64,000 nucleotides of DNA from Planctomycetota bacterium (lineage in GTDB: Bacteria > Planctomycetota > UBA11346): positions 7,865 through 71,864 of the forward strand of contig JACCZE010000336.1 in assembly GCA_013696105.1 (NCBI GenBank), written 5' to 3'. Both the position numbers and the translations under genes were made by a program. The notes below the pieces were generated by a model. It worked only from the letters and a program-made list of their open reading frames with translations, was not told where the DNA came from and ran no database searches. Shown in pieces: positions 40,815 through 56,791 of this stretch (position 1 is the stretch's first letter; each line of letters opens with the position of its first letter).

Positions 40815-41445
40815 CGAGAGGATGGATCCGAGGGCACACAACGACACGATCCTGGCACCGTGCCTGGTCCCGATCACCGCTGAGAACAGGCCACCCGGCT
40901 CGGAGAGGTTCTCTGAATCGCGGTATGATCCGATCATCGGGCAGCGTGCCCATCTGCGCTGGGATCCGCGGTTGCGTCGGGACGTCGGTGCGGTTTCCAT
41001 GATGGATGGATGGAAAGACCCACGCATCGACAGGCGAGGCAACCGGCTTGGATCGGCGTCTCCGTCTCTGCAATGCGCTATACAGGTCGCCAAAGCGGTC
41101 CGGCTGGTCCCGCTATGCCTCACAGGTCGTCGGGGGCCTCGGAATATCGATTCTGGCTAGGACGCCGTGGGTGCGTCCAGTGGCTGAAGACGGGGATGCA
41201 GGAAAACGGATGGTGGACCGGTGCCAGATCCAGGCGGAATTCCTGGGAGAATCCCGGAAATGCCGAGCCCCGGTCCGCCAGGCGCCCGTCGGAAAGCCCG
41301 CAAAATCCCAAAATGTGGAGAACTTGTCGGCAAAGACCTGAAACCTGCTCTTGTCGCTGCCAGCGGAGACGCCAAACATGTCCCCGGTCGGCGAACATCA
41401 TCGCTGGCCCGTGTCCATGGCCGTGGCCGTTCGAGAGGGGTCCCA
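40815..41445. other. 630-bp non-coding, lower-GC region upstream of the dnaB-like gene; possible long leader, regulatory region or unrecognised ncRNA
   Basis: There is no convincing ORF: all frames here give R/P-rich or stop-interrupted products. Local GC drops. It contains a short GATGGATGGATGG repeat and one near-DnaA-box, TGTGGAGAA. Confidence 0.3.
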
Positions 41446-43098: not shown

Positions 43099-43328
43099 TC
43101 CCTGCGAGGTCGTCAGAACTGGAAGCGCTGAGCGGCCAGCCGCTTGGGTGAACCATCAGGTCACCGTTCGCAACGATAGCCGTTGTTGCATTATTCTGCG
43201 ATCATGTGTGCTGTCGCGCTCGCGTCTGCGAGCAGAGGTATCGCTGTGCCACCAGGAGTTCAGGGCATGACCACGAGTCGGATGCTGCGCGATCGACCGG
43301 TCGGGTCCGGAATGGCAGCCAGACGCCG

Positions 43329-45488
43329 ATGAGCGAACCGGACTCCGCTCCTCCCTCCACGCCGGCCGCACCGCCCGAGGCTGGCGATGCCCGAGCGCCT
43401 GGCGCCGGTGGCCAAGACGCAGGGGGCGGACGTTCGATCACCTTCAAGTCGGTGTTCTTCGGCCTGGCCGGCGTCGGATTCATCGCCTTGTATGCCAACT
43501 TCAACAGCGAGATCCTCAAGCTCAGCTCGATCATCGGCAACCAGCTGCCGATCGGGCCGTTCTTCATCATCCTCGTCCTGGCGACCCTATGGAATCCACT
43601 CGCTGGCAAGGTATCGAGCCGTCTGCGCTTGAGCACGCGCGAATTCGCCGTGGTGCTGGCGATGATGCTGATCTCCTGCTGGCTGCCGATGAGCGGGTTC
43701 TACATGCTCTTCCAGCGGGCGATCATCACCCCGTGGACGGTTGCCGCCGGCAAGCCCGACTGGGAGGTCCACAAGACGCTGTCGCACCTCCCAAAGGAGC
43801 TGTTCCCGCTCGAGCATGAACGCGGGTCCACCCAGGCCGACAAGGAAGCCTACGAGCGGGTCTACGAGAGCTTCGCGCAAGGCATCCCGCACGGGGACGA
43901 GAAGCTGGGGTTGACCGAAGCCCCGTATCGCGAATGGCTGCCCGCGATGATGCGGTGGGCTCCGTTGTTGCTGTTCGTGTCGATCGCGGTCATCTCGCTG
44001 ATCCTGCTCGTGCATCGACAGTGGTCGCATCACGAGCAGCTCGCCTATCCCCTGGCCATCGTCTCGACCGCGCTGATCGCGCGGACCGGGTCTCGGGCCA
44101 CCTCCGACATCTTCTATTCCCGGCTGTTCTGGTTCGGGTTCGCACCCGTGTTTGCGATCCACCTGTTCAATTATCTGCACGCGTGGTTTCCGCTGTACGT
44201 GCCGGAGATCAAGCTGACCACCGAGCTGATCGGGGAATTCAAGGAGATCTTCCCGTCGCTGAAGAACTCGATGACCCACGTCACCTCGATCAAGGTGAGC
44301 TTCCTGATCATCGGCATCGCCTACTTCATCGCATCGGACATCAGCCTCAGCCTGGGTATGGCCTCCTTGTTCGTCAGCGTGTTCACCGCCCAGTTCTACA
44401 TCATGAGCGGCGGCATGCCTGTGGGCTGGGGCGAGATGGCCAACATCCGCGCCGGCAGCTATGTGGCCTACGCTGCCCTGCTGGTCTACACGGGGCGCCA
44501 TTTCTACTGGAAGGTCTTCAACAAGGCGGTCCGGCCCATTTCCCAACGAGAGGATATGGAGGCCGTCTGGGCGGCGCGCATCTTCGTCCTGTCGTTCGCC
44601 TGCTTCGTGGGTTTCCTGATCACGGTGATGGATCTCGACTGGTTCATCGCCCTGATCTACGCCGGCAGCGTGATGCTCTTCATGCTGGTGTTCACCCGCA
44701 TCATCTGCGAAACCGGATTGCCGTTCCTGGCCGCGGGTGTCGACATCATCAATGTCATCACCTCGCTCCTGGGTGCGCCTGCGGTCGGTCCAGGCGCGCT
44801 CGTCGTCATCTATTACCTATCATGCATCATCAAGACTGACACCACCGAGGCGCTGATGCCCTACGTCGCGACCAGCTTGAAGACCGCCGACAATGTCGGA
44901 GTCAGCAGGCCGCGCCTGCTGACGGTCGCCTTCGCGGGCATGACCATCGCGTTCGCGCTCTGCTTCTTCTCATGGACCTACGGGCTCTACGCCAAGGGGT
45001 CGGGCAACAACATGTGGGTGGTGTCGCCGTCGATCTGGGCCCTGGATAACGCGACCACCAAGCTCGCGATCCTCAAGGATACCGAGCAATTGGCGGAATC
45101 AGCGAACACCCACGGTTTGGCCAAGCTTGGCCTGATCCCGCAGAACGTCGGCAACGGGCTGATCATCAAGTGGATGGGATTAGGCGCCTTCTTCGTGCTG
45201 GCATTCTCGCTGCTGCGCTTCCGATTCGCGTGGTGGCCGCTGCACCCTGTGGCATTCCTGGTCTGGGGCACCAGCGCGTCGCGCGTGACATGGTTCTCCT
45301 TCTTCCTCGGATGGTGCATCAAGGAGCTGATCGTGCGATTCGGCGGGGGGCGGAGCTACCAATCGCTCAAGCCGATCTTCCTCGGGCTGATCATGGGCGA
45401 GATCGTGGCGGTGGCGATGACCCTGGTCTGTGGAGCCTTCTACTACTGGTCGACCGGCCTGCTGCCGAAGACGATCGGGATCTGGTGA
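43329..45488 (+). CDS. Large polytopic membrane protein (about 719 aa, about 16 TM), OPT-oligopeptide-transporter-like; paralog of 52592-54547
   Basis: An Ala/Pro/Gly-rich N-terminal tail, then repeated TM helices. Segment-level similarity to the second membrane protein (LSTREFAVVLAMMLIS versus LSRAQLFVLFYLSGTII) and loosely to OPT-family N-termini. The start is at the Met at 43329. Confidence 0.6.
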   Translation: MSEPDSAPPSTPAAPPEAGDARAPGAGGQDAGGGRSITFKSVFFGLAGVGFIALYANFNSEILKLSSIIGNQLPIGPFFIILVLATLWNPLAGKVSSRLRLSTREFAVVLAMMLISCWLPMSGFYMLFQRAIITPWTVAAGKPDWEVHKTLSHLPKELFPLEHERGSTQADKEAYERVYESFAQGIPHGDEKLGLTEAPYREWLPAMMRWAPLLLFVSIAVISLILLVHRQWSHHEQLAYPLAIVSTALIARTGSRATSDIFYSRLFWFGFAPVFAIHLFNYLHAWFPLYVPEIKLTTELIGEFKEIFPSLKNSMTHVTSIKVSFLIIGIAYFIASDISLSLGMASLFVSVFTAQFYIMSGGMPVGWGEMANIRAGSYVAYAALLVYTGRHFYWKVFNKAVRPISQREDMEAVWAARIFVLSFACFVGFLITVMDLDWFIALIYAGSVMLFMLVFTRIICETGLPFLAAGVDIINVITSLLGAPAVGPGALVVIYYLSCIIKTDTTEALMPYVATSLKTADNVGVSRPRLLTVAFAGMTIAFALCFFSWTYGLYAKGSGNNMWVVSPSIWALDNATTKLAILKDTEQLAESANTHGLAKLGLIPQNVGNGLIIKWMGLGAFFVLAFSLLRFRFAWWPLHPVAFLVWGTSASRVTWFSFFLGWCIKELIVRFGGGRSYQSLKPIFLGLIMGEIVAVAMTLVCGAFYYWSTGLLPKTIGIW

Positions 45489-45489
45489 C

Positions 45490-46965
45490 ATGAGCGCTCC
45501 AGGCATCGACGTTCGCGCTCAGCACACGATCCCGTTGGCCAAGGCCACCACGCTGTGCCTGAAGGGTATCACCCATCGCCTGTTCCGTTCGCTGCTGACG
45601 CTGATGGTCATCGTGCTCGCCGTGGCGTTTTTCATGACTCTGCTGTGCGAAGCTGCCTTCACGCGCGCGATCGGAAGAGGCGTCATGTCCGAGGCTGCCG
45701 AGCAGCGCATCCCCGAGCGGCGCGCGAAGATTTGGTTCTCGCAGCCATCGCAGGTCCTGCTCGCGACTCGGTTGGCCACCGCCACGCAAGCGGATATCGA
45801 CGAATTCGCCGCGGTATCGGGAGTCGAGCACGCCCACGTGCAGCACCTCGTCGTTGAAAGCGATCGACAGGCGAGGCTCCTAGCTTTTTTCGCCACCATG
45901 GATGCCGGCAGTCGCGCGGTGCTGATCGGAAAGGTCAAAGGTCGCGAGGTGTTCACGCATCTTTCGGATCCAGCGGGATGGGAGGCTTTCACCCAGGGCG
46001 TGCGTCAGGTCCACGCTTATTCGCTGCCACTGCCGTTGCCCGAGATCAAGACGTTCATCGATGGCTATCCGGGCTATATTCGCGATCTCGATGCCTTCGC
46101 CTCCGCATGGAAGGCCGGTGTTTCTCGTTTCACCGCAGAGCTCGCTCCGATCGCCGGAACCACCGAAGAAGCCGGGTGGCGCGCGTGGCTGGTGTCGGCC
46201 GATGCCGGACAGCTCGCAACCGTCCAGGCGTTGCTGGCACGGCATGGCTTCCGGGATACCCTCGAGATTGTCGCGCGCGTGCGCCAAGGTCTGGCCGACG
46301 CCCAGGTGCGCGACCAGATCGCCGCTGCATTGGATTCGGACAAGGCCGTCGTCGCTTGGAAGAAGACCTTCCTGAACGATCCGTCTCCGGACCAGAAGAT
46401 GGGCTTCATCGCGGACAAGCGGGTGGAGCGGGTCCTGGAGGGGCGGTGGAGCCACGAGCGCCTGACTGCGGTCGCGGCGGGCATCGATCATGAGCACCAG
46501 GTCGCCAATCTCGAGAAGGTGGTGTCCCAGCGCATTCCCGACCAGCGCAGCGATGCGCTGATCAACGGTCGTCAGGCGTTCCTCATGGCCATCTCGTTCG
46601 TGGTATGCATGGTCGGCATCGCCAACGCCATGCTCATGGCGATCACCGAGCGCTTCCGTGAGATCGCGACCATGAAATGCCTCGGTGCCACCGACGGCTT
46701 CATCCTGCAGCAGTTCCTGATGGAGGCGGGCATCCAGGGGCTCGCTGGCGGGGCGGTCGGCATGGTCATCGGTGCAGTGTTGGCCGTGGCCAAGGGATCG
46801 GTCGTGTACGGCTCCTACCTCTATGGATATTTCCCCATCGTCGATGTCCTGATCGCAGCGGCGATCTGCATCGCGACCGGAGTCCTTCTATCCACCCTCG
46901 CCTCAATCTATCCGTCGTGGACCGCATCGCGGATGGCCCCGATGGATGCTATGAGGGTCGAGTGA
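45490..46965 (+). CDS. ABC transporter permease, FtsX/MacB-like (type VII ABC), 4 TM with a large periplasmic domain of about 330 aa
   Basis: TM1 (FRSLLTLMVIVLAVAF), a long extracytoplasmic domain, then the FtsX C-terminal signature ITERFREIATMKCLGATDGFILQQFLMEAG...YPSWTASRMAPMDAMRVE. Confidence 0.85.
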   Translation: MSAPGIDVRAQHTIPLAKATTLCLKGITHRLFRSLLTLMVIVLAVAFFMTLLCEAAFTRAIGRGVMSEAAEQRIPERRAKIWFSQPSQVLLATRLATATQADIDEFAAVSGVEHAHVQHLVVESDRQARLLAFFATMDAGSRAVLIGKVKGREVFTHLSDPAGWEAFTQGVRQVHAYSLPLPLPEIKTFIDGYPGYIRDLDAFASAWKAGVSRFTAELAPIAGTTEEAGWRAWLVSADAGQLATVQALLARHGFRDTLEIVARVRQGLADAQVRDQIAAALDSDKAVVAWKKTFLNDPSPDQKMGFIADKRVERVLEGRWSHERLTAVAAGIDHEHQVANLEKVVSQRIPDQRSDALINGRQAFLMAISFVVCMVGIANAMLMAITERFREIATMKCLGATDGFILQQFLMEAGIQGLAGGAVGMVIGAVLAVAKGSVVYGSYLYGYFPIVDVLIAAAICIATGVLLSTLASIYPSWTASRMAPMDAMRVE

Positions 46966-47729
46966 TGACGTTCGATCCGATCGCTTATGGTCGCGGCAAA
47001 TCGATCCTCGTGCGCGCGCATGGCGTGCAGAAGACCTATGTCCGCGGGGCCGAGGTCACCCAGGCGCTCAAGGGCATCGACCTCGAGATTTACCGAGGCG
47101 AATATATCTGCGTCATGGGTCCGTCAGGCTCCGGAAAATCGACATTCTTCAATATGGTCGGCGGTCTGGATTCACCCACGGCGGGCCGGGTATTCATCGA
47201 CGAGGTCGACATGGCCCAGCTCAACGCCCATGAGCTGGCGTTTCTGCGGTGCCGCAAGATCGGCTACATCTTCCAGTCCTACAATCTGAATTCGGTGATG
47301 ACCGCTCTCGAGAACGTCACGCTGCCGATGACCTTCGCGGGCGTCCATTCTGATGAGGCGCGGCGTCGAGGCATGGAGCTGCTCGAGCGCGTCGGGCTCG
47401 GCGACCGCTGGCTGCACCGGCCCAAGCAGATGTCGGGCGGTCAGCAGCAGCGCGTCGCCATCGCTCGCGCACTCGCCAATCGCCCGTCACTGCTGCTGTG
47501 CGACGAGCCGACGGCGAACCTCGACCTGGTCTCAGGCAAGGAGGTGCACCGTATCCTGCATGATCTCAATCGCGATGACGGCGTCACCATCATCTGTGCG
47601 ACGCACGACCACAACATGCTTGAGGTCAGCAACCGCATGATCTGGATCGCGAACGGCCAGATCGAGCGCGTCTCGTTGAGTTCGGATGTGCGCCTCGAAC
47701 GCGCCAGCCTGGGTGACGACCATGGGTGA
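46965..47729 (+). CDS. ABC transporter ATP-binding protein (MacB/LolD-type NBD)
   Basis: Walker A GPSGSGKST, Q-loop, ABC signature MSGGQQQRVAIARAL, Walker B LLLCDEPTANLD and H-loop CATHD. The start overlaps the upstream stop as TGATG. Confidence 0.9.
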   Translation: MTFDPIAYGRGKSILVRAHGVQKTYVRGAEVTQALKGIDLEIYRGEYICVMGPSGSGKSTFFNMVGGLDSPTAGRVFIDEVDMAQLNAHELAFLRCRKIGYIFQSYNLNSVMTALENVTLPMTFAGVHSDEARRRGMELLERVGLGDRWLHRPKQMSGGQQQRVAIARALANRPSLLLCDEPTANLDLVSGKEVHRILHDLNRDDGVTIICATHDHNMLEVSNRMIWIANGQIERVSLSSDVRLERASLGDDHG

Positions 47730-50700
47730 CCGCATCATGCGTCTGTTCATCGCGTGCTGCGCCGTGGTGTCGCTGACCGCGGCCGAGGCGCATCCCGCGT
47801 ACGATGCCGTGATGGCGGAGTTCTCGCGCCATGACCAGCGCCTGCCCGGTAGCGAAGCGTACCGGTCGAGCATTGCCGAGCTCGAGAAGGTCCTGCGCGC
47901 ATCCGGGCTCGAGCCCCATCGGCAGACGTTCGATACGCTGGTCCCGCGCACGCTCACATGCTCGCTGTCCATCGGCGGAGCGGACATCTCGCCGGTCCAT
48001 CCGCTCGCTCCCAATGGTGTTGCTCCCACCGGAACCTGGGGTGCTCCCGTCTCCGGACCCCTGGTGTACGTCGGCTCCGGATCTCCAGCCGATATGGATG
48101 GCAAGCCGATCGAGGGAAGCATCGCGGTGATGGAGTTCGGCGGACCGCACATGGACGAGGTCTTCGCCCAGGGCGCGCGCGCCGTGGTATTCGTCGGCAA
48201 CGACACCGCGACGCAGTGGTCGGTGGCCAAGCATTTCACCTCGTTGCCTGCGATCGTGCCGCGCGTCTATGTCGATCGCCCGGTCGCCGAGCGCGCGGGC
48301 ATGCTGAGCGCCGATGGCTCCGCAACCGCCACCCTCGACGTCTCGACCGCCTGGGAAGATGTCCAAGGCATCAATGTCTGGGCCAAGGTGCCATCCAAGA
48401 GGCCGCGCCCGCAGGTCGCAGAGGGGGAGACCGCCACCCCTCGGCACGCCTTCGTGCTGTCTGCGAATATGGGGACGTTCGGGTCCGTTCCGGACCTCAG
48501 CCCGCAACGGCGCTGGGCCGCGAACTGCGCCCTGCTCGCGGAAGTCGCGGCACGCCTCCAGCGCGAGCAGGCGGAGGCCGAGGTCTACATCGTCTTCTTC
48601 GGCAGCCATTACTCCGCCGAGGAAGGCGCGCGGTTCTTCTATTACGTGGTCGATAAGCATCGCAAGGGCGCGACCGATCGGGATACGTTGGCCTATCGCG
48701 ATCAATCCGTCTACCGCATGCAGCTCGAGCAGGTGGACCGATATACCGCACTTCTCGACCGCGAGGATTTCGCGGGCTCGACGACACGCGATGCGGTCAT
48801 GGTCCGTCTGCAGCTGAAAAACCACCTGGTGGGTATCGTCAACGACATCAACTACGATATGCGCGCATCGGCCATCGCCCAGAGCGCGCTCGAGAAGCGG
48901 ATTGCGGTGATGTCGTCGACGCGCACAAAGGATCTGGCGGAGGGCGTTCCTGAACTCGAGCATGCAATCGCTACGCAAGTCGCCGAGCAGAAGGAGCTGA
49001 AGACCACCAAGTCGGCGGTCAACGTCCTGCGCGGGGAACTGGCCGAAGGAGCATTCAGCGACAAGGCCGCGATCGCCAAGCATATCGACGTCATCCGCGA
49101 GCGGCTCAAACGCAAACGCGCGTGGCTGGAACGGATGATCGCCCACAACGCGACTTTCATCGAGCTGGCGGGGTCGCTCAAAGGCGAGACCATCATCGGC
49201 CACCTGTCGTTCGATTTTTCGTCCTCCGATCGTTCGTGGATGCTCTGTTGTTTCGGTGAGAATTGCTGGTCACGAGCCGAGGAGATATGGCCGGGCGCGC
49301 TCGGAAAGCATGTCACGGCCTACAAGAACGCGTTCGAGTCGATGCAACCGCGGACGGACGGCGTTGGCGGATTGTGGGTCCCGAGCAATGACGCGCCCTT
49401 CCGCTGGGACGCGTTGAGCACTCCGCACAGCCGCACCATCCCATCGGCCACTGCGGTCGCACTCGGGATCGCCGGATTCGAACTGATGACGCTCGCCGAT
49501 CCCCTCGACCACGACGAAATGCCGGTGCTCGGCGAGTGGAAGCTCGCGCCCCTGGCGCCGATGCTCGCGGATTGGGTGAGATCGCTGGCCGCGGTCGATG
49601 ATCTGCCGGTGAAGACCGGGATCCTGCCGACGGAGTACTTCGCTCCGCTCCAGTATTCGGCCTCGGGCGAGGACCTCACCGGTCTCGAGATCGTCGATCA
49701 GGCAAAGGGGGCTGAAGACGTCCAGGGCCTCGCGCGCAATGCGGTGGCGACGGTCGGCTACATGCCGCACAACATCGCCTCTTTCGAGCCGCCCTACAAG
49801 CTCGGCGCTATCAACATGGTGCTCTCGCGCGTGACTCCGGATGGCCGCGTCTTCGCGCCGAACGTGATCAGGCAACCGGACTACGACCCAACCGGCAACT
49901 ACGTCAACGCCTTCGGTTTCACCTCTGATGGCAGGATCGAGCGCACGTCTCCGAATGGACAGGGCGGGGGCAGCCGACTGAAGCTCTTCTATGCCTTCGG
50001 CGGATCGTTCTATACGCCATTCATCCCCAACGATTACATCTTCGTGAATCGCAGCGATTTCCTCGTGGCCAAGACCGACAGCGGTCCGAAGCGTCAGTTC
50101 TCGGCGTGGTTCCGCGGTTTGGAGGTCTTCTACCAGGATCAGCCCGTCAATTTCAAATACCTCGGCAATGGGATGAACATCCTCGGCATCGAGCAGGGGC
50201 TCGGACACGGCGTGGGGATCCCGATCACGTCGACGGACCTGATCGGCTTGAATGTCACCCGTCGATCCGGACACGACTACTCGGCGCTGAATCTGCAGCG
50301 GTTGAAGGCCCTGCGTGAACGCAATCTGGTCAACAAATCACTCGAGAAGCTGCAGGCTGACGCGCAAGAACAGGTCGATCTGGGCGACTCGTCGCGCAAG
50401 GATGGGGAAATCCGTTCAGCGATCGCGCACGATACCATCGCCACGATCATCGGTAACAGGGTGCATCAGCCGCTTCGCGACAACGCCTCTGACCTGGTGC
50501 AGGCGGTCATCATCCTGCTGCTCCTGTGCATCCCATTCTCGTTCGCATGCGAACGGCTGATGATCGGCGCAGCGTCCATCTATCGGCAGATCATCGGCTT
50601 TCTGAGCATCTTCCTCGCCACCTTCGGCGTGCTGTATGCCACCCATCCCGCGTTCTCGCTGGCCTCGGCCCCGATCGTCATCTTCCTGGCGTTCATCATC

Positions 50701-52599
50701 ATCCTGCTGAGCACCTTCGTGATCTTCGTAGTGATGAGCAAGTTCAAGCAGGAGCTCAAAGCGCTCCAGGGGTTATCCTCGAAAGTCCACGGCGGACAGG
50801 GGGAGAGCAGCACCGCGCTCGCGGCGGTGGTGATCGGCATCTCGGGCATGCGCAACCGGCCCTTGAAGACCTTTCTGACGTCGACCACGGTGGTGCTGCT
50901 GACCTTCACCATCCTGGTGTTCGCCTCGTTCACCTCGAATGTCGGCGTCGTCTCGACCTTCGTCGGAGCCGCTCGCGGTCCGGATCGCATCGAATTCCAT
51001 ACACCATCGTTCATGTTCATCCCCGATCGGCTGCTCGACAGCATCTCGGCGGTCTATGGTGATCGGTTCGACGTCTATCGTCGAGCAGGCTCGTTCAAGG
51101 TCTGGGGAAACGTCGGCACCCGTGATGAGATCGTGAATGTCGCCTTCAACCCCAAGGGCGACAAATACCAGCGCCTTGACAGCATGCTGATCGTCGATGA
51201 GCGCGAGGTCCCGAGGTTGGACCCCTTGTTCGCTCCGTTGGCGCAGCCATCGGACTCCGATCTCCCGCCGATCCTGCTGTCGCCCTTGGTGGCGAAGAAG
51301 GTGGGCCTCGCCATCGGGGATACCGTCACCGTCCGAGGTCAAAGCTATCGTCTCGCCGGCACGTTCGACGGCCCGACGCTCAAGCGCATCGAGAACGTCG
51401 ACGCATCGCGCATGCTTCCTCCGGATTTCGATCGTTCGAGTTCCAGTCTCGGCGTCAGCGCCGACAACCAGGACCGGATGCAGAACTTCTTCAAGAGCCT
51501 GGATTTCACCGGATTCATCTACAGTACGCCGGACATGGTCGGCGTCACCACCTTCGCAGGCATGGCGAAGCTGGGCCGGATCGACAATTACCTGGTAATG
51601 TACCCGAAAACCTCGGATGTCGATGTCGATACCGCTGCGCGCGAGATCGCCTCGTACGTCGATGGCCCGGTGTGCGCCTCCGTCGCAGGCAAGGGAACGA
51701 ACCGCTACATCTTCTCACGCGCGTTCGCCGGCTCAGGATTCATCGAGGTGCTGGTGCCGCTGCTGCTGGGCGGGCTGATCATCTTCAGCTCGCTCCTCGG
51801 GTCGATCGTGGATCGTCAGAAGGAGATCTACACCTTCAGCGCGCTCGGGCTCGCTCCACCGGACGTCGGTGCCCTGTTCTTCGCCGAGTCGGCGGTGTAC
51901 TCGGTCCTCGGCGGCATGGGCGGGTACCTCATCAGCCAGGTGGTCGCAAAGGGCCTGATGGTGCTCTCGGCCCATGGGCTCGCCGACGTACCGGACCTGA
52001 ACTTCTCCTCGCTCTCATCGATCGCGACCATCCTCATCGTGATGCTGACCATTATGCTATCGACCATCTATCCGGCGATGATGGCCGGCCGGTCGGCGAA
52101 CCCCGGCGTCGCGCGCAAATGGAAGATGCCAAAGCCCGAGGGCGACCGCATCGCTTTCACATTCCCGTTCACCGTCTCTGCCGAGAGCATCGGCGGCATC
52201 CTCGCCTTCATTCGCGAGCATTTCGAGAACCACGGAGACGCGACGCTCGGGGCATTCTCCGCGCGCGACATTCGCATCTTCCGTGACGAAGGCTCCGCCG
52301 GGCGACCTCCGTCGACGGGAATCTCCGCCGACGTATCGCTCGCTCCGTTCGACCTCGGAGTGCTGCAGCGCTTCGTCCTGAGCACCCGCCCATCGGATAT
52401 CAAGGGCATCGATGAGGTGGTGGTCGAGCTGACGCGCATCAACGGCGCGCCTGGCACGTGGCTGCGCGGCAATCGCGAATTCATCAACGACCTGCGCAAT
52501 CAGTTCTTGTTCTGGCGCTCGCTGCCGCTGGCGACCACCGAGCATTACCAGGAGATCGCTGCGCGCTCATTCGGCACGGCGGAGGTGTCCCTTGGCTAG
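47722..52599 (+). CDS. Giant (about 1625 aa) secreted/membrane protein: signal peptide, M28-peptidase-like domain with a PA-domain insert (canonical metal-ligand motifs not evident), 3 extra TM helices, then an FtsX/MacB-type permease module (4 TM plus a 270-aa periplasmic domain)
   Basis: Signal peptide MRLFIACCAVVSLTAAEA. A PA-like IAVMEFGGPHMDEVFAQGARAVVFVGND. An M28-like layout VLSANMGTF...AANCALLAEVAARL...VYIVFFGSHYSAEEG with EE retained but the HxD/DD positions replaced. FtsX TM1 RNRPLKTFLTSTTVVLLTFTILVFA. The FtsX C-terminal module RQKEIYTFSALGLAPPDVGALFFAESAVYSVLGG...YPAMMAGRSANPG. The start is at 47722 (or 47737). Confidence 0.75.
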   Translation: MGDRIMRLFIACCAVVSLTAAEAHPAYDAVMAEFSRHDQRLPGSEAYRSSIAELEKVLRASGLEPHRQTFDTLVPRTLTCSLSIGGADISPVHPLAPNGVAPTGTWGAPVSGPLVYVGSGSPADMDGKPIEGSIAVMEFGGPHMDEVFAQGARAVVFVGNDTATQWSVAKHFTSLPAIVPRVYVDRPVAERAGMLSADGSATATLDVSTAWEDVQGINVWAKVPSKRPRPQVAEGETATPRHAFVLSANMGTFGSVPDLSPQRRWAANCALLAEVAARLQREQAEAEVYIVFFGSHYSAEEGARFFYYVVDKHRKGATDRDTLAYRDQSVYRMQLEQVDRYTALLDREDFAGSTTRDAVMVRLQLKNHLVGIVNDINYDMRASAIAQSALEKRIAVMSSTRTKDLAEGVPELEHAIATQVAEQKELKTTKSAVNVLRGELAEGAFSDKAAIAKHIDVIRERLKRKRAWLERMIAHNATFIELAGSLKGETIIGHLSFDFSSSDRSWMLCCFGENCWSRAEEIWPGALGKHVTAYKNAFESMQPRTDGVGGLWVPSNDAPFRWDALSTPHSRTIPSATAVALGIAGFELMTLADPLDHDEMPVLGEWKLAPLAPMLADWVRSLAAVDDLPVKTGILPTEYFAPLQYSASGEDLTGLEIVDQAKGAEDVQGLARNAVATVGYMPHNIASFEPPYKLGAINMVLSRVTPDGRVFAPNVIRQPDYDPTGNYVNAFGFTSDGRIERTSPNGQGGGSRLKLFYAFGGSFYTPFIPNDYIFVNRSDFLVAKTDSGPKRQFSAWFRGLEVFYQDQPVNFKYLGNGMNILGIEQGLGHGVGIPITSTDLIGLNVTRRSGHDYSALNLQRLKALRERNLVNKSLEKLQADAQEQVDLGDSSRKDGEIRSAIAHDTIATIIGNRVHQPLRDNASDLVQAVIILLLLCIPFSFACERLMIGAASIYRQIIGFLSIFLATFGVLYATHPAFSLASAPIVIFLAFIIILLSTFVIFVVMSKFKQELKALQGLSSKVHGGQGESSTALAAVVIGISGMRNRPLKTFLTSTTVVLLTFTILVFASFTSNVGVVSTFVGAARGPDRIEFHTPSFMFIPDRLLDSISAVYGDRFDVYRRAGSFKVWGNVGTRDEIVNVAFNPKGDKYQRLDSMLIVDEREVPRLDPLFAPLAQPSDSDLPPILLSPLVAKKVGLAIGDTVTVRGQSYRLAGTFDGPTLKRIENVDASRMLPPDFDRSSSSLGVSADNQDRMQNFFKSLDFTGFIYSTPDMVGVTTFAGMAKLGRIDNYLVMYPKTSDVDVDTAAREIASYVDGPVCASVAGKGTNRYIFSRAFAGSGFIEVLVPLLLGGLIIFSSLLGSIVDRQKEIYTFSALGLAPPDVGALFFAESAVYSVLGGMGGYLISQVVAKGLMVLSAHGLADVPDLNFSSLSSIATILIVMLTIMLSTIYPAMMAGRSANPGVARKWKMPKPEGDRIAFTFPFTVSAESIGGILAFIREHFENHGDATLGAFSARDIRIFRDEGSAGRPPSTGISADVSLAPFDLGVLQRFVLSTRPSDIKGIDEVVVELTRINGAPGTWLRGNREFINDLRNQFLFWRSLPLATTEHYQEIAARSFGTAEVSLG

Positions 52600-54547
52600 G
52601 ATCGACAAGGAACTGGAGCAATACCGCCAGCTGATGTCAGTGCCATCGGTGTTCGAGAACGGATTCTCGCTCTCAACCTTCTTCGGCGTGATGTTCATCG
52701 CCCTGGTGATGGTGCCTGGATCGTTGTACATGGAGCTGCTCGCCGGCCAGGGTGTCGGATCGTCGGCCCAGTGGGTGACGGTGATCCTGTTCATGGAGAT
52801 CGCGAAGCGCGCGAACGCCAAGCTGTCACGCGCCCAGCTCTTCGTGCTGTTCTACCTGTCCGGCACCATCATCGGGCAGGGTGGCGGCCTCTTGTGGACG
52901 CAGTTCCTGGTGCGCAGCGACGCGGCCCTGGGAGCCGGCATGAGCGGTGCCTTCCCGATCTGGGTGGCTCCGAGCGACCCGGCTGCCTTTGAGAACCGCA
53001 CGTTCCTCCAGGCTGCGTGGCTGCCCGCGATCGGTCTCATCTTCTTCAAGATGTTTTTCGGTCGGCTCGACAACATGGTGTTGGGATACGGCCTCTTCCG
53101 GCTGACCAGCGACGTCGAGAAGCTGCCGTTCCCGCTCGCGCCTATTGGCGCGCAGGGGATGCTCGCGCTCGCGGACGATCTCGAAGGCAAGGCTCAGGTC
53201 CAGGGATCGTGGCGCTGGCGGGTGTTCTCGATCGGTGGCGCCCTGGGCATGATCTTCGGTGTGCTGTTCTACGGCTTGCCGACGATCAGTGGTGCGGTGT
53301 TCGGCACATCGTTCACCGTTTTGCCGATCCCTTTCGCGGACTGGTCGGACTACACCAAGACCTACCTGCCCGCGGTCGCGACGGGCCTGTCGTTCGATCT
53401 CGGCAACATCATCCTCGGTATGGTGATGCCCTATTTCGCCATGGTGGGGTCCTTCATCGGCCTGATCACCACCTTCATCATGAATCCGATCCTGTACCAC
53501 ACCGGGGTGCTGACCTCGTGGACCCCGGGCGACAGCACCGTCGAGACGATGTTCAAGAACTCGATCGACCTCTATTTCAGCTTCGGCATCGGGCTGTCGC
53601 TGGCGATCGCGGTCATCGGCTTCATGGCGGTGTTCAAGCTCAAGAAGAAGCAGCGCGAGGACCATGCCGCGGCCCTCGGCAGCGATATCCCGCCTGGCCG
53701 AGGCGACATCCCCAACCGCGTCGTGCTCTGGACCTACGTGCTCTCGACCATCATCTACATCCTGGTCTGCGGATACCTGGTGGATTGGCACACCGGGGTG
53801 ATGGTGGTCCTGGTGTTCTTCGGATTCCTGTACACGCCGATCATCTCCTACGTCACCGCCCGCCTCGAAGGCATCGCCGGGCAGGTGGTCGAGATCCCCT
53901 ACATCCGCGAACTGTCCTTCATCCTGTCAGGCTATCAGGGGGTGGGGATCTGGTTCATCCCCACGCCGATGGCCAATTATGGCGCCCAGACCGTGTTCTA
54001 CCGGCAGGCGGAACTCACCGGCACCCGATTCACGTCCTTGTGGAAGTCCGAGGTCTTCCTCTTCCCGGTGATGATCGTCGCGACCATCGCCTTCGCGAGC
54101 TTCATCTGGGGACTGGGCGAGATCCCCTCGTCGGTCTATCCCTTCACCCAGCAGATGTGGGAGCTCAACGCCAAGAATGCGGTGCTGGTGATGTCGTCCA
54201 CCACCGGCGAGTACTCGCAGTTCCAGGAGGCGCTCTCCGGAACCAAGGTCGGTATCGGCTTCGGCGTCGGCATGGGCGTCTTCGGTTTCCTCGCCGTCTT
54301 CAATGCGCCGACGACCCTGCTCTACGGTCTGATCCGCGGCATCGGCCAGACCACCCCGCACATGGTGATCCCGCAGTTCCTGGGTGCGCTGCTCGGGCGT
54401 TATTACTTCGAGAAGCGCCTGGGCCTGAAATGGCGCGAATACGTGCCCGTGCTCAGCGCGGGATTCTTCTGCGGTGCGGGCCTCATCACCATGTTCTGCA
54501 TCGGAGTGGTGTTCCTGATGAAATCCAGCAACCACCTGCCCTACTGA
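52592..54547 (+). CDS. Large polytopic membrane protein (651 aa, about 16 TM), OPT-like; paralog of 43329-45488
   Basis: A TTG start with a perfect GGAGGTG RBS 4 nt upstream, overlapping the upstream stop. Hydrophobic throughout, with a GMVMPYFAMVGSFIGLITTFIMNP region. Confidence 0.6.
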   Translation: MARIDKELEQYRQLMSVPSVFENGFSLSTFFGVMFIALVMVPGSLYMELLAGQGVGSSAQWVTVILFMEIAKRANAKLSRAQLFVLFYLSGTIIGQGGGLLWTQFLVRSDAALGAGMSGAFPIWVAPSDPAAFENRTFLQAAWLPAIGLIFFKMFFGRLDNMVLGYGLFRLTSDVEKLPFPLAPIGAQGMLALADDLEGKAQVQGSWRWRVFSIGGALGMIFGVLFYGLPTISGAVFGTSFTVLPIPFADWSDYTKTYLPAVATGLSFDLGNIILGMVMPYFAMVGSFIGLITTFIMNPILYHTGVLTSWTPGDSTVETMFKNSIDLYFSFGIGLSLAIAVIGFMAVFKLKKKQREDHAAALGSDIPPGRGDIPNRVVLWTYVLSTIIYILVCGYLVDWHTGVMVVLVFFGFLYTPIISYVTARLEGIAGQVVEIPYIRELSFILSGYQGVGIWFIPTPMANYGAQTVFYRQAELTGTRFTSLWKSEVFLFPVMIVATIAFASFIWGLGEIPSSVYPFTQQMWELNAKNAVLVMSSTTGEYSQFQEALSGTKVGIGFGVGMGVFGFLAVFNAPTTLLYGLIRGIGQTTPHMVIPQFLGALLGRYYFEKRLGLKWREYVPVLSAGFFCGAGLITMFCIGVVFLMKSSNHLPY

Positions 54548-54601
54548 TGCCGATCACCGCCCGACATCCAGTTGAGACGTGCGCCGATGGGAGGGGATCC
54601 G

Positions 54602-55366
54602 ATGGCTGACTGCCCGATTCCATCCGGCCCCGTGGCTTCGGCCCGCGAGCTGATCGTCCGCGTCAGCGGTGTCGACAAGGTGTATCGCACCGGCCACGAG
54701 ACCGTGTACGCGCTCAAAGGCATCGACCTCGACATCTATCGTGGCGAATACCTGTCGATCATGGGCCCGTCGGGTTCAGGCAAATCCACGCTGTTCAACG
54801 TCATCGGCGCGCTCGACAAGCCCACCCGGGGCGAAGTGGCCGTCGGCTCGGTGTCCCTGCCCAAGCTGAGTTCGGCCGAGCTGTCGTACTTCCGTTGCCG
54901 TCACATCGGCTACGTCTTCCAGAACTACAACCTCATCCAGTCGCTGACCGCGCTCGAGAACGTCACGCTGCCGTTGACCTTCATCGGCGCCGACGACGCC
55001 GAAGCCAAGCGCCGAGCGATGGAGGTCTTGGATTTTGTCGGCCTCGCCGATCGCCTCACCCACAATCCCGGACAGCTCTCAGGCGGTCAGCAGCAGCGCG
55101 TGGCGATCGCCCGCGCATTGGCCAATCGTCCCACCATCCTGCTCGCGGACGAGCCCACGGCGAACCTCGACCTCAAGACCGGCGCGATGGTGATCGACAT
55201 CTTCAAGAAATTGTCGTCCGAGCACGGGGTGACGATCATCACCGCGACCCATGACCACAAGATGCTCGCGGTCTCCGATCGCATCGTCGACATCGCAGCG
55301 GGTCAGGTGGCGCGCATCCGCAACGTGCGCGACCTGAACATCACGGTCGGCAAGATCCATGCCTGA
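54602..55366 (+). CDS. ABC transporter ATP-binding protein (second MacB/LolD-type NBD; paralog of 46965-47729)
   Basis: Walker A GPSGSGKST, LSGGQQQRVAIARAL, ILLADEPTANLD and TATHD. The ATG at 54602 is preceded by GGGAGGGG. The track ORF starts at 54572. Confidence 0.9.
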   Translation: MADCPIPSGPVASARELIVRVSGVDKVYRTGHETVYALKGIDLDIYRGEYLSIMGPSGSGKSTLFNVIGALDKPTRGEVAVGSVSLPKLSSAELSYFRCRHIGYVFQNYNLIQSLTALENVTLPLTFIGADDAEAKRRAMEVLDFVGLADRLTHNPGQLSGGQQQRVAIARALANRPTILLADEPTANLDLKTGAMVIDIFKKLSSEHGVTIITATHDHKMLAVSDRIVDIAAGQVARIRNVRDLNITVGKIHA

Positions 55367-56288
55367 GGCCGACGCGCCGCCGGCGCGGAGGGATGATCGG
55401 CTGCCGCTGCACCTCCAGCGCCTGCGGCACCTGTCGTGGGAGGGCTTCTCCTTCGTGCTTCCTCCGGGCTGGGAAATCACCGCGTACAGCTTGGACGCCA
55501 AGAACGGCCAATTCCAGTTTTTCGAGCGCGGCACATTCCGCGCGCAGTTGGTCTGGCGGAAGGTGCCCAAGGCCCCGGATCTGCCGCGTATCCTCAACGA
55601 GATCCATCGGCGTCAGCTCGAGAAGGATGCGCCCGGTTCCTCGAAGTCGTTCAGCACGCTCGAATTCGCCCAGATCGGTCGGTTCCTGGTCGGCCACGAC
55701 CGGCCTGGCCTACCCTGCCAGGCCTCGCTCTTCCAGCCCGATCGCGGCCTGCTCATCCAGTGGGTCTTCCCCAGCTACGATCCAGGAGATTTCATCACGA
55801 GTTGGATGCCGCTGCTCGACTCGTTCGCGCCGAACGATGCCGCGGAGATGCGCTGGGAGCTGTTCGGCCTGTCGCTGCGGCTGCCGCGAAGCATGACCTT
55901 CGAGGAGATCACTCCTGATCCTGCGAATGTGGCGTTGTCGTTCGAGACCAGGAAGCACGCGAAGCTGGTCGCTCGCCGCATGGGCCTTCCGACCATCGTG
56001 CTCGCCGGTACGTCTCTCGCGCGGGTGCATGCGCGCATCCTCGAGCGCGCCGGATCGCGCATCCTCTCGTGCGAGGATCTCTCCATGGATGGCCACCGTG
56101 CGGTGCGCACGCGCTTCGACCGGCGCGGCATGAAAGGCATGGAGAAGTTGGTCGGCGGCTGGTGGCCCGGAGACGCCTGGATCTGGCACGACGAGATCGA
56201 GGGTCGCATCTATGCCATCGAGCAGTTCGGACCCAGGAAGCAGATTCCGATCGAGTTGTCAGCGATCATCCGCCGGGACGGTCCGTGA
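55359..56288 (+). CDS. Hypothetical protein (309 aa); possibly a degenerate HprK-kinase-C-terminal-like domain without a P-loop
   Basis: No Walker A. The segment LAGTSLARVHARILERAGSRILSCEDL loosely parallels the HprK [27 protein letters not shown] with the P-loop lost. The start overlaps the ATPase stop. Confidence 0.45.
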   Translation: MPEADAPPARRDDRLPLHLQRLRHLSWEGFSFVLPPGWEITAYSLDAKNGQFQFFERGTFRAQLVWRKVPKAPDLPRILNEIHRRQLEKDAPGSSKSFSTLEFAQIGRFLVGHDRPGLPCQASLFQPDRGLLIQWVFPSYDPGDFITSWMPLLDSFAPNDAAEMRWELFGLSLRLPRSMTFEEITPDPANVALSFETRKHAKLVARRMGLPTIVLAGTSLARVHARILERAGSRILSCEDLSMDGHRAVRTRFDRRGMKGMEKLVGGWWPGDAWIWHDEIEGRIYAIEQFGPRKQIPIELSAIIRRDGP

Positions 56289-56674
56289 TGGTCGCTAAGC
56301 CAAAGGGTCCGGGGACACTGGCAGAACAGATGTCGGCAGTCCCGGTGCGCAACGAGAAGGTGCGTGTCGTCGAGCAGTCCGGCGGGGCGCACCTGACCGT
56401 ACCCTTGACCTACCACGCCATGCTGCGGCCACTGGCGTCGGCGATGAAGCTGCGCACCGAGAAGACGTTCCAGCTGGATGTGCTCGCCTACTCGGTGTAC
56501 CGCCGGATCGACGGCGTCGCGACCGTCGAGACCCTCGCTGATCGGCTGAAGGATGAATTCCAGCTGTCATTCCATGAGGCGCGCGTGCTGGTGATGCGCT
56601 ACCTGCAGCTCTTGATGGTTCGTGGACTGGTGGTCCTGGCAAAGCCTCTTCCGGCTCCGACCACCGGGGGCTGA
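56288..56674 (+). CDS. PqqD-family-like protein (RiPP recognition element / peptide chaperone fold), 128 aa
   Basis: VPVRNEKVRVVEQSGGAHLTVPL...FQLDVLAYSVYRRIDGVATVETLADRLKDEFQLSFHEARVLVMRYLQLLMVRGLVVL follows the PqqD/RRE pattern P.....V.......L.....L.LN..A..IW.L.DG..TV.EI...L...F.V....A..DV..FL..L...GL. The start overlaps the upstream stop as TGATG. Confidence 0.5.
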   Translation: MVAKPKGPGTLAEQMSAVPVRNEKVRVVEQSGGAHLTVPLTYHAMLRPLASAMKLRTEKTFQLDVLAYSVYRRIDGVATVETLADRLKDEFQLSFHEARVLVMRYLQLLMVRGLVVLAKPLPAPTTGG

Positions 56675-56791
56675 TCCACTCGGTCGATCCTCTCTGTCGA
56701 AGGTTCGGGTGATCCGAGTGCTGATTCTGGCTGCTTGGCACGACTGGCGCTCACATGGTGAAACACCAGCGCTACGCTCGTGAGGGGCCAT

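Follow-up and report, generated by a model that had tools for sequence, protein, structure and literature searches.

The window analyzed here, 64,000 nt of contig JACCZE010000336.1 from a Planctomycetota bacterium, carries a run of eight plus-strand genes, one of which encodes an exceptionally large membrane protein, hereafter the giant. The frame from 47686 to 52599 (+) is open without interruption, the ATG at 47722 yields 1625 aa, and this product matches, at 100% identity, a protein (P0001) that NCBI lists for the MAG of a Planctomycetes bacterium; the giant ORF reported in the preliminary description is therefore real. The genes of the cluster are as follows.

43206..45488, plus strand: multipass membrane protein with DUF6785 and DUF6784, 760 aa, which opens the cluster (Pfam E 8e-74 and 2e-25).
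45490..46965, plus strand: second, ordinary-sized FtsX-type permease, about 491 aa when read from the ATG at 45490; its longest open frame begins at 45430 (Pfam FtsX, E 2.5e-16).
46965..47729, plus strand: LolD/MacB-type ABC ATPase 1, about 254 aa from the ATG at 46965 (Pfam ABC_tran; similarity to NCBIfam LolD, MacB and FtsE).
47722..52599, plus strand: the giant gene, 1625 aa plus stop (ORF reading and exact NCBI match).
52592..54547, plus strand: OPT-family multipass membrane protein, 651 aa (Pfam OPT).
54572..55366, plus strand: LolD/MacB-type ABC ATPase 2, 264 aa (Pfam, NCBIfam and motif reading).
55359..56288, plus strand: soluble orphan protein u309, 309 aa (co-conserved with the cluster).
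56288..56674, plus strand: PqqD-like (peptide-chaperone / RRE-type) protein, 128 aa (Pfam PqqD, E 6.6e-6, 26.8 bits, above the cut-off).

The giant is translationally coupled to the two LolD-type ATPases, the second FtsX permease and the OPT-family protein. The ATG of ATPase 1 overlaps the stop of the small permease (TGATG), the stop of ATPase 1 and the start of the giant share 8 nt (ATGGGTGA), and the OPT-family start overlaps the giant stop by a further 8 nt. The two ATPases are 59% identical, each with intact Walker A, signature, Walker B and H-loop motifs.

This arrangement recurs in related genomes, where the commonest order is FtsX (about 490 aa), ATPase, giant, OPT-family membrane protein, ATPase, usually accompanied by u309 and the PqqD-like protein and often by the DUF6785/6784 protein. 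Partners were counted over 67 loci on the downstream side, 53 on the upstream side and 36 that were well flanked. The most constant is the OPT-family protein (58% mean column identity), which lies directly 3' of the giant in 66 of 67 loci; ATPase 2 is present in 63 of the 67. On the other side, ATPase 1 is found in 50 of 53 loci and the small permease precedes the giant in 49. The well-flanked loci include u309 in 26 cases, the PqqD-like gene likewise in 26 (placed 5' of the gene for the small permease or behind ATPase 2) and the DUF6785/6784 protein in 19. In the most divergent relative (P0056) only the OPT-like partner adjoins, so the full eight-gene set is not obligatory in cis. The Pfam OPT assignment is a weak match (PF03169, 30.9 bits against a cut-off of 25.8, model positions 134-619 of 623), a sequence search for a solved relative of this partner returned none, and u309 has no relative in Pfam, NCBIfam or the PDB. 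At the family level, three hints share a peptide theme, namely the M28/PA fold, the weak Pfam OPT match and the PqqD match at 26.8 bits. The cluster contains neither RiPP-type modifying enzymes nor a precursor gene.

The giant joins a dead aminopeptidase-like M28/PA ectodomain to a MacB/FtsX-type ABC permease in one chain. Its parts, all on the plus strand, are these.

47722..47793, plus strand: signal peptide, aa 1-24, MR-LFIACCAVVSLTA-AEA/HP (hydrophobic segment 5-23; the slash marks the putative A-x-A cleavage site).
47794..49611, plus strand: M28 aminopeptidase-like fold with a PA (apical) insertion, the pseudo-peptidase, aa ~25-630; PA at aa ~111-225.
48688..49176, plus strand: helical (coiled-coil-like) insertion inside the M28 fold, directly after the former EE helix, aa 323-485 (AF2 helices 323-345, 356-399, 403-442 and 448-485).
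49639..50211, plus strand: beta-rich ectodomain module, aa ~640-830 (AF2 secondary structure, pLDDT mostly >85).
50230..50496, plus strand: helical stalk leading to the membrane, aa 837-925 (AF2 helices 845-866, 872-893 and 897-929).
50497..50751, plus strand: three extra TM helices, TMa 927-947, TMb 955-975 and TMc 983-1006 (TM scan, AF2, PADLOC PDLC01991 positions 65-365).
50752..50862, plus strand: cytoplasmic linker and amphipathic pre-TM1 helix, aa 1011-1047, GISGMRNRPLKTF (AF2 helix aa 1030-1044; conservation 0.62).
50863..52086, plus strand: type VII ABC (FtsX/MacB) permease module with four TMs (Pfam FtsX, TM scan, AF2).
52087..52596, plus strand: conserved cytoplasmic C-terminal domain, aa 1456-1625, about 170 aa (beta-alpha-beta4-alpha2 topology in AF2).

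Sequence profiles and high-confidence structure models agree on the core architecture originally proposed, an inactive M28/PA ectodomain followed by three extra TMs and a complete MacB/FtsX permease; the AF2 models reach pLDDT 92.1 and pTM 0.92 for the N-terminal part, and pLDDT 86.8 and pTM 0.73 for the C-terminal part. The earlier domain map, right in this core, took no notice of the conserved C-terminal domain that ends the protein in the cytoplasm (aa ~1456-1625) or of the neighboring genes in the operon. By per-segment conservation, the membrane core and this C-terminal domain are under the strongest selection.

The cleavable signal peptide places the ectodomain, about 900 aa, in the periplasm. 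It has the M28 alpha/beta fold with an inserted PA domain, as first described; the fold extends over aa ~25-630, including the AF2-predicted helical insertion of about 165 aa, rather than over the N-terminal 800 residues or so. Pfam M28 stays below significance with the giant as query. Conservation along the protein is lowest in the helical insertion (0.28, 21% gaps), which is missing from the deepest-branching relatives, the Pfam M28 match being contiguous in P0056 and P0062. The beta-rich module that follows gave no separate match standing out in fold comparison. The protease-like and apical parts correspond to those of the TfR/GCPII architecture. That architecture as a whole (M28B) was rejected for the giant, which differs by its signal peptide, in-domain helical insertion, beta-rich domain and multi-TM anchor. 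TfR is tethered by a type II anchor at its N-terminus; the giant is anchored C-terminally, and its helical element is inserted within the protease-like domain instead of forming the C-terminal helical dimerization domain of TfR and GCPII.

The catalytic apparatus is lost. Active-site residues were mapped through HMMER alignments to 2ek8, not by structural superposition. The H-x-D and bridging-Asp motifs are absent, as had been noted from the sequence, and the giant reads N249-M-G251 and R264-W265 at these places. The preliminary description held that the Glu-Glu pair in SAEEG (E300-E301) remained; this pair is out of register with the catalytic EE. Both alignments set GAEENGLIGS of M28 against GSHYSAEEGA of the giant, which puts H296-Y297 at the catalytic EE position. 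Nor is the SAEEG pair conserved, since the family mostly has Q and D/E in columns 300 and 301. The former catalytic and ligand positions of the giant are occupied by N249, G251, R264/W265, H296, Y297, D498 and D598.

The same loss is seen throughout the family, as tallied over 152 long members. The His position of H-x-D has T, P, H, N or Y, with His in 17, and the bridging Asp is Arg in 130. At the general-base position His (79) and Gln (29) prevail and Glu occurs in only 9, being missing from 143 members, while the ligand Glu has become Tyr (64) or Ala (45) and the final His is Asp in 90. The full set of H, D, acid and EE is intact in none of the 152. With metal ligands and catalytic Glu gone throughout the family, the ectodomain belongs beside transferrin receptor, nicalin and GPAA1 as a non-catalytic module. 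An active family M28 peptidase was rejected as a description, the co-catalytic ligands (His, Asp, Glu, Asp, His) and the EE general base not being kept; the secreted M28 + PA aminopeptidases (Aneurinibacillus AM-1 2ek8, B. subtilis YwaD/BSAP 6hc6 and P. aeruginosa PaAP 8ac7) differ from the giant as well in having neither the helical insertion after the EE helix nor a tether to a permease. The membrane-anchored proteins transferrin receptor 1, nicalin and GPAA1 (inactive) and GCPII/PSMA (active) are eukaryotic, and none is fused to an ABC permease.

The permease module of the giant runs from TM1 (1048-1072) through a periplasmic Porter/Sabre-like domain (1073-1338) to TM2 (1339-1363), a coupling helix (1366-1374, RQKEIYTFSALG), TM3 (1379-1417) and TM4 (1430-1452). 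The membrane-spanning stretches proper, from the TM scan and AF2, are 1048-1072, 1341-1362, about 1385-1410 and 1432-1452. PF02687 (FtsX) matches aa 1344-1456 at 39.6 bits against a cut-off of 25.5. A large extracytoplasmic domain with the Porter (and Sabre) fold lies between TM1 and TM2, and AF2 places both the major coupling helix in the TM2-TM3 cytoplasmic loop and the amphipathic helix before TM1, two elements defined as type VII features in PMC5985334, where MacB has the corresponding pre-TM1 helix. The whole fold resembles solved type VII members, and a cognate MacB/LolD-type ATPase is at hand. The RQKEIYTFSALGLAPPDVG motif is conserved (R1365, E1368, G1376, L1377 and P1379 are invariant), as previously stated, although its RQKEI belongs to the cytoplasmic TM2-TM3 coupling-helix loop and not to a C-terminal helix. 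The three extra TMs (conservation 0.63) contain the invariant membrane-embedded residues P938, F939, E944, R945, P976 and F978.

The seven-TM core also matches PADLOC profile PDLC01991 (CARF_m8--CARF_LolE_TM) at E 2e-42, profile positions 65-365 aligning with aa 916-1242 and 397-598 with aa 1298-1504; the last 210 or so profile positions have no match in the giant. Scanned alone, neither the ectodomain nor the C-terminal domain matches PDLC01991 or PDLC01990. Judged by its model name only, the latter (CARF_Beta-galactosidase_LolE_TM) has a comparable enzyme-like ectodomain, LolE-type TM core and cytoplasmic domain. The C-terminal domain of the giant, predicted to be beta-alpha-beta4-alpha2, does not appear Rossmann/CARF-like, and no CRISPR or defense genes lie near the giant. 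Pfam and NCBIfam hold no family for this domain, to which we provisionally assign fold resemblances to KA1, AMPK-alpha C-terminal, START and SRPBCC domains.

The same fusion occurs in at least 594 species genomes, mostly of the PVC superphylum and Myxococcota, and in about 1000 protein clusters (1044 at 50% identity); a homologue search retrieved 63 full-length homologues. The fusion, originally called unusual, is so relative to characterized systems only, and is the rule for the family in PVC and Myxococcota. The giant shares with type VII ABC transporters (MacB, LolCDE, FtsEX, HrtBA, YtrEF and YbbAP-TesA) the four-TM FtsX module, the Porter/Sabre-type domain between TM1 and TM2, the coupling helix and the amphipathic pre-TM1 helix, as well as separate LolD/MacB-type ATPase genes next door and, as for LolCE, two permease genes per operon. 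It exceeds them by the N-terminal ectodomain, three extra TMs and cytoplasmic C-terminal domain, and its cluster stands apart through two ATPases that are distinct, an OPT-family membrane partner that is obligatory and the lack of a division context. A MacAB-TolC-type tripartite pump was considered and rejected, there being no HlyD/MFP (MacA-type) adaptor among the cluster genes of the window or in related loci.

Taken together, the giant would serve a type VII (MacB/LolCE/FtsX-class) ABC mechanotransmission machine as its large permease subunit; the mechanotransmission framework is taken from PMC5985334. ATP binding and hydrolysis by the ATPases of the cluster would zip the FtsX helices, by analogy with MacB, and the periplasmic domains, the tethered pseudo-peptidase among them, would be moved by this zipping. 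The pseudo-peptidase could be the receptor or clamp of a periplasmic ligand, which would be passed to, or received from, the OPT-like membrane partner. The M28/PA cleft together with the OPT-family and PqqD-like partners suggests that the ligand is most plausibly a peptide or protein terminus, a guess at this stage. The giant may form either a homodimer, like M28 domains of the TfR/GCPII type and like MacB, or a LolC/LolE-like heterodimer with the FtsX protein of about 490 aa. The substrate-binding role first proposed for the pseudo-peptidase, with ATP-driven manipulation of the bound substrate, is plausible. We judge it somewhat better than an even prospect that an ATP-driven mechanotransmission machine carries the ectodomain as a receptor or scaffold without catalytic activity.

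The strongest competitor, which we nevertheless hold to be unlikely, is an extractor resembling LolCDE or YbbAP, in which the giant and the smaller FtsX permease would form a heterodimer whose cargo, pulled from the inner membrane, is a lipid-anchored protein, a lipopeptide or some other hydrophobic molecule. The cargo would be gripped by M28/PA, with the SRPBCC/KA1-like C-terminal domain making lipid contacts at the cytoplasmic face. Two different FtsX permeases per operon, as LolC and LolE, agree with this idea, as do the ATPases, whose best match is LolD (217-227 bits), and the lipid-binding folds (KA1, START and SRPBCC) among those assigned to the C-terminal domain, although that assignment is itself provisional. 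Nicalin and GPAA1, M28-like pseudo-enzymes of eukaryotes, act in membrane-protein or lipid-anchor biogenesis, and both are among the fold or profile matches. However, the two ATPases are distinct, unlike LolD2, the cluster has no gene for a LolA-like carrier, and the NCBIfam scores for LolC and LolE are negligible. By equivalog, a LolCDE lipoprotein extractor was rejected (LolC 10.8 bits against 473; lolCE 8.8 against 362).

It is less probable still that the M28-like domain remains an enzyme with a remodeled, for instance mononuclear, site built from D251, H296, D498 and D598, as a tethered peptidase or an acyl- or glutaminyl-cyclase-like protein whose substrate access is gated by the ABC module, compare YbbAP-TesA. 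Conserved polar residues do persist at former ligand positions (D251 in 139, H296 in 79, D498 in 91 and D598 in 90 of the 152 members), so that a remodeled metal or ligand site is conceivable, and PMC12646458 supplies a precedent for a type VII ABC transporter working together with a periplasmic hydrolase. Against it, position 251 is Gly in the giant itself, and the Arg at the bridging-Asp position, the missing general base, the canonical set found in no member and the non-significant Pfam M28 result all speak for loss of catalysis.

We give a similarly low probability to a single-chain regulator like FtsEX-EnvC, in which the helical insertion would stand for the EnvC coiled coil docking on the FtsX periplasmic domain and, in the ATP-bound state, the dead peptidase would switch on a separate hydrolase of the cell wall or envelope. 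EnvC, which PMC7668044 and PMC12505981 present as an FtsEX-controlled, catalytically dead peptidase homologue with a coiled coil, is the parallel to a giant with a long predicted helical insertion. Yet the insertion is the least conserved part and absent from deep-branching relatives, and the genes that do keep company with the giant encode the OPT-family protein and PqqD/u309, with no co-conserved hydrolase or amidase among them. An FtsEX division regulator was also rejected by equivalog, as FtsX_Gneg, FtsX_Gpos and FtsX_actino do not match the giant; division genes are missing nearby, its neighbors being OPT-like, PqqD-like and DUF6785 genes rather than ftsE, ftsY or envC. That the long ORF is an assembly chimera or two-gene read-through deserves practically no credence despite the MAG source and a gene split in two long-read assemblies (1047 + 669 aa in L085; fragmented in L086), because the same fusion recurs across all those genomes and clusters, with collinear full-length homologues of about 1500-1900 aa and 25-79% identity in hundreds of independent assemblies and with conserved linker regions, and because the split cases show overlapping frames and adjoining fragmented genes or transposases, typical of indel errors or decay.

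The giant, with its pseudo-peptidase on a type VII permease, is the centerpiece of a widespread seven-to-eight-gene envelope system, for which we found no description in the literature searched. Tentatively, and with the balance still against it, the cluster may constitute an undescribed envelope machine of PVC bacteria and Myxococcota, comprising two type VII ABC engines, two OPT-like proteins, a dead-peptidase receptor built into the giant and a cytoplasmic PqqD-like peptide chaperone plus its orphan partner, for a new ATP-driven capture and translocation or processing of peptides or protein termini at or across the inner membrane. If so, the function of this machine would be separate from efflux, lipoprotein release and hydrolase activation.

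The giant protein is encoded by a single uninterrupted open reading frame (window 47686-52599, forward strand), in which the ATG at 47722 gives 1625 residues; as ATGGGTGA, this start shares bases with the stop codon of the preceding ATPase gene. The G+C content of the region (61-65%) is the same as that of its surroundings, and the NCBI entry 'MAG: hypothetical protein H0V44_13325 [Planctomycetes bacterium]' is 100% identical to the product. Searching with the full-length query gave 63 homologues, all of ~1360-1865 aa and all with FtsX. When only the ectodomain was used, an exhaustive HMMER search returned 1044 clusters at 50% identity, 488 of them with E <= 1e-10; the best matches are mostly 1500-1900 aa, and the short ones are largely 'partial' proteins from short contigs. 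Scanning one genome per species with a degenerate pattern detected giant-type proteins in at least 594 species. Those listed belong mostly to Planctomycetota, Verrucomicrobiota, Kiritimatiellia and Lentisphaeria/Victivallales, and also to Polyangiaceae/Myxococcales, Omnitrophota and Sumerlaeia. The preliminary description had asked for orthologs of the same fusion in other genomes, and these exist: the fusion is genuine, and its distribution rules out an assembly chimera. The database homologues are named only 'hypothetical protein', 'ABC transporter permease' or 'cell division protein FtsX', and the top matches all come from MAGs.

Two megabase-scale long-read contigs hold the giant gene in overlapping pieces (related loci L085, 6894-12010, and L086, 5931-14426); in L086 the DUF6785 gene is fragmented as well, and the pieces adjoin transposase fragments. 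The splits reflect indel errors in the assemblies or else a cluster that is truly decaying. With overlapping frames or fragmented neighbours, the genes look frameshifted or decayed and were rejected as natural two-gene versions.

The layout of the giant was drawn from a hydrophobicity scan and two structural models. The AlphaFold2 model of aa 1-930, built on a 62-sequence alignment, is confident (pLDDT 92.1, pTM 0.92); the C-terminal model covers aa 900-1625 (pLDDT 86.8, pTM 0.73).

Domain layout of the giant protein (h, hydrophobicity scan; A, AlphaFold2 model of aa 1-930; C, C-terminal model)
aa 5-23: signal-like segment at the N-terminus (h)
aa ~25-322: alpha/beta domain with inserted beta-rich domain (A)
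aa 323-485: four long helices, the helical insertion (A)
aa 486-630: alpha/beta domain resumed (A)
aa ~640-830: beta-rich domain (A)
aa 837-929: three-helix stalk (A)
aa ~927-947, 955-975, 983-1006: three extra transmembrane (TM) helices, TMa-c (h), N-terminal to the amphipathic helix (C)
aa 1030-1044: amphipathic helix before TM1 (C)
aa 1050-1072: FtsX-module TM1 (h)
aa 1072-1335: alpha/beta periplasmic domain between TM1 and TM2 (C)
aa 1341-1362: FtsX-module TM2 (h)
aa 1366-1374: short cytoplasmic helix between TM2 and TM3 (C)
aa ~1385-1410: FtsX-module TM3, weaker (h)
aa 1432-1452: FtsX-module TM4 (h)
aa 1476-1618: beta-alpha-beta4-alpha2 domain after TM3 and TM4 (C)

A putative signal cleavage site, read from the sequence, falls between AEA and HP. 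The beta-rich domain at aa 640-830 had no fold match of its own, the structural matches of the whole model being dominated by M28. We infer that the membrane path runs out-in-out-in, bringing TM1 into the MacB orientation; the Lys/Arg-rich loops (945-955, 1007-1047) fit this path, as they fall on the predicted cytoplasmic side. Measured as mean top-residue frequency, conservation peaks in the membrane core and cytoplasmic domain (FtsX TM1, 0.73; TM2-TM4, 0.67; extra TMs, 0.63; C-terminal cytoplasmic domain, 0.56), lower in M28/PA (~0.46), and lowest in the helical insertion (0.28). Invariant residues lie in or beside the extra TMs (P938, F939, E944, R945 and H975-P976-A977-F978; aa 926-1010, window 50497-50751), and the charged and aromatic ones may make up a site within the membrane for interaction or function.

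Direct scans of the giant gave FtsX only with Pfam (aa 1344-1456, E 6.5e-10) and nothing above threshold with NCBIfam, where similarity to ADOP, LolC and MacB was sub-threshold. Neither scan matched M28 or PA, so M28 ancestry is shown through the family profile and structure. A profile of 35 full-length homologues matched the PA-containing M28 aminopeptidase 2ek8 (E 1.5e-19), YwaD/BSAP 6hc6 (5e-17) and PaAP, and more weakly the transferrin receptor (about 1e-4) and nicalin (0.01); Foldseek agreed. Pfam M28 is itself significant on four distant members (P0048, P0053, P0056 and P0062). Its match is contiguous in P0056 and P0062, which implies that the helical insertion arose inside the giant family. 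Catalytic positions were mapped through HMMER alignments to 2ek8 and family alignments.

M28 catalytic positions in the giant and in the 152 family members of at least 1300 aa
His of 'HHDS' (2ek8): giant N249; family T 45, P 20, H 17, N 13, Y 12
Asp of 'HHDS' (2ek8): giant G251; family D 139
Bridging Asp of 'GANDDASG' (2ek8): giant R264/W265; family R 130 at position 264
First Glu of 'GAEENGLIGS' (2ek8): giant H296; family H 79, Q 29, R 15, E 9
Second Glu of 'GAEENGLIGS' (2ek8): giant Y297; family Y 64, A 45
Next Asp ligand of M28: giant D498; family D 91, N 31
Last His of M28: giant D598; family D 90, E 20

The complete set of H, D, acid and EE is kept in 0 of the 152 members. The proposal that the M28 domain is inactive is therefore borne out across the family, and the alignment that had been called for, scoring the metal ligands, places the loss of H-x-D and the bridging Asp in the giant itself. 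The preliminary description had also seen a retained Glu-Glu pair in SAEEG (E300-E301). The true EE register lies four residues upstream of this pair, whose columns are mostly Q and D/E; register and poor conservation rule it out as the catalytic pair. The giant is an M28 homologue by fold that, by alignment, lacks the catalytic residues. A less likely rival reading makes the ectodomain an enzyme with a remodelled active site; Arg occupies position 264 in most family members, and none keeps the canonical set. The Gly at aa 251 (window 48472-48474) stands at the former H-x-D Asp, where 139/152 members have D; the giant is an outlier there even among its own pseudo-peptidase family.

In its C-terminal half the giant is a type VII ABC permease. 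Hallmarks of the MacB superfamily are four TM helices, with a periplasmic Porter/Sabre domain separating TM1 from TM2 and a major coupling helix separating TM2 from TM3, and an amphipathic helix that precedes TM1 (PMC5985334), and every testable mark of membership was found in the giant. The motif RQKEIYTFSALGLAPPDVG, previously placed in the C-terminal helix, is indeed conserved, but it belongs to the coupling-helix loop; R1365, E1368, G1376, L1377 and P1379 are invariant among the 35 homologues. The giant lacks the defining features of the MacAB, LolCDE and FtsEX subfamilies, and no membrane-fusion adaptor, LolA-like, amidase or RiPP-modifying genes are co-conserved with the cluster. Two further, less likely rivals make the giant an FtsEX-EnvC-like hydrolase activator or a Lol/YbbAP-like extractor of lipids or lipoproteins.

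The PADLOC model 'CARF_m8--CARF_LolE_TM' matched a seven-TM core comprising the three extra TMs and the FtsX module (aa 916-1504, window 50467-52233; E 2e-42), but left both the ectodomain and the C-terminal domain unmatched. The small FtsX permease of the operon reached only 1.9e-6 with the same model. This difference argues that the three extra TMs define a distinct permease subclass, apparently common to proteins classified as CARF-linked. A sister PADLOC model, judged by its name alone, has a LolE-type TM core bearing an ectodomain that resembles beta-galactosidase. Seven-TM FtsX-type permeases may thus form a broader class in which enzyme-like ectodomains and cytoplasmic domains can be exchanged. 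Membership of a defence system was rejected: PADLOC gave only this core and generic ATPase matches, and no CARF region was matched.

The giant lies in a densely packed cluster in which several genes overlap by 1-8 nt.

Cluster genes and their occurrence in fetched related loci with enough flank (counts given as 'at least' are lower bounds because of tblastn sensitivity)
43206-45488: DUF6785/6784 membrane protein; DUF6785 usually upstream, at least 19/36
45490-46965: small FtsX permease, ~491 aa; upstream of the giant, 49/53
46965-47729: ATPase 1; immediately upstream of the giant, 50/53
47722-52599 (+): giant
52592-54547: OPT-family (OPT-like) membrane protein, Pfam OPT above cut-off; immediately downstream of the giant, 66/67
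54572-55366: ATPase 2; after the OPT-like gene, 63/67
55359-56288: u309, orphan protein of 309 aa; with PqqD, at least 26/36
56288-56674: PqqD-like protein, Pfam 6.6e-6; upstream or downstream, at least 26/36

The two ATPases share 59% identity, have intact motifs, and find their best model matches in LolD, MacB, DevA and FtsE. The most divergent relative keeps only the OPT-like neighbour. The OPT-like protein is far better conserved than the giant (58% mean column identity, alignment A5) and has no solved relative by sequence. More than 100 of its residues are invariant across PVC and Myxococcota homologues. BLASTP found no match between DUF6785 and the OPT-like protein; profile-profile comparison of DUF6785/DUF6784 with it gave a weak, suggestive match (probability 23-32%, E about 5e-4 to 9e-4), centred on a common motif E-x-L-x-[YF]-P-x-A ('HRQWSxHEQLxYPxA' vs 'FRLxSDxEKLPFPxA'). 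On this basis the cluster may hold two modules, each of an OPT-like membrane protein, an FtsX-type permease and an ATPase. The orphan u309 is soluble, with invariant W27, P35, W38, G50, W66 and R207, and has no Pfam, NCBIfam or PDB relative even through a 31-sequence profile. It is always accompanied by a PqqD-like protein (113-143 aa); the two genes either precede the small FtsX gene or follow ATPase 2.

A promoter and terminator scan gave nothing above chance, its sole suggestive site being a terminator-like hairpin (43170-43189) that lies between the dnaB gene and the cluster. Upstream (window 40158-43189) are genes for a Lon-N (LON_substr_bdg) protein and for a DnaB helicase that is 625 aa long and has a long N-terminal extension; both likewise precede the cluster in the closest relative (locus L001), with an extra DUF1499 gene between. 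After the cluster (window 56780-58192) comes a CARDB-domain putative lipoprotein with a lipobox-like N-terminus, LAGCGGGGGGS, a homologue of which adjoins the cluster in 0/86 related loci.

The analysis establishes that the giant has the fold of a type VII ABC permease and a dead-peptidase domain in the periplasm, and that cognate ATPases, a near-constant OPT-family partner (66/67 loci) and a frequent PqqD-like partner (at least 26/36) go with it. In MacB, ATP-driven zipping of TM helices shifts the periplasmic domains (PMC5985334). By analogy, MacB-like zipping in the giant would move its periplasmic domains and take effect on, or by way of, the covalently linked M28/PA module, a putative receptor or clamp. 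The ligand would most plausibly be a peptide or protein terminus, because a conserved cleft-forming fold is combined with an OPT (oligopeptide transporter) partner and a cytoplasmic PqqD-type peptide-binding partner. The M28/PA proteins TfR and GCPII dimerise, as does MacB, making a giant homodimer served by ATPase 2 an attractive possibility. A LolC/LolE-like heterodimer of the giant and the small FtsX, with a heterodimeric ATPase pair, would fit the gene order equally well; permeases of the MacB superfamily are homo- or heterodimeric (PMC5985334).

The literature searched contained no description of an FtsX/type VII ABC architecture with an M28 (pseudo)peptidase, and nothing on FtsX with M28 and PqqD, on FtsX with Peptidase_M28 in Planctomycetes, or on DUF6785. 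The giant family is real, widespread and uncharacterised. To our knowledge, type VII ABC systems are understood in only a few functional classes, namely efflux, lipoprotein release, hydrolase activation, haem/lipid extraction and bacitracin sensing. The family adds to these a permease with a permanently attached, predicted receptor of dead peptidase fold, three extra TMs and a cytoplasmic domain, present in hundreds of species of the poorly studied, environmentally and gut-relevant Planctomycetota, Verrucomicrobiota, Kiritimatiellia, Lentisphaeria and Polyangiaceae. The giant would be a bacterial counterpart of the eukaryotic M28-like pseudo-enzymes transferrin receptor, nicalin and GPAA1, and a tractable system for how mechanotransmission couples to a covalently attached periplasmic effector.
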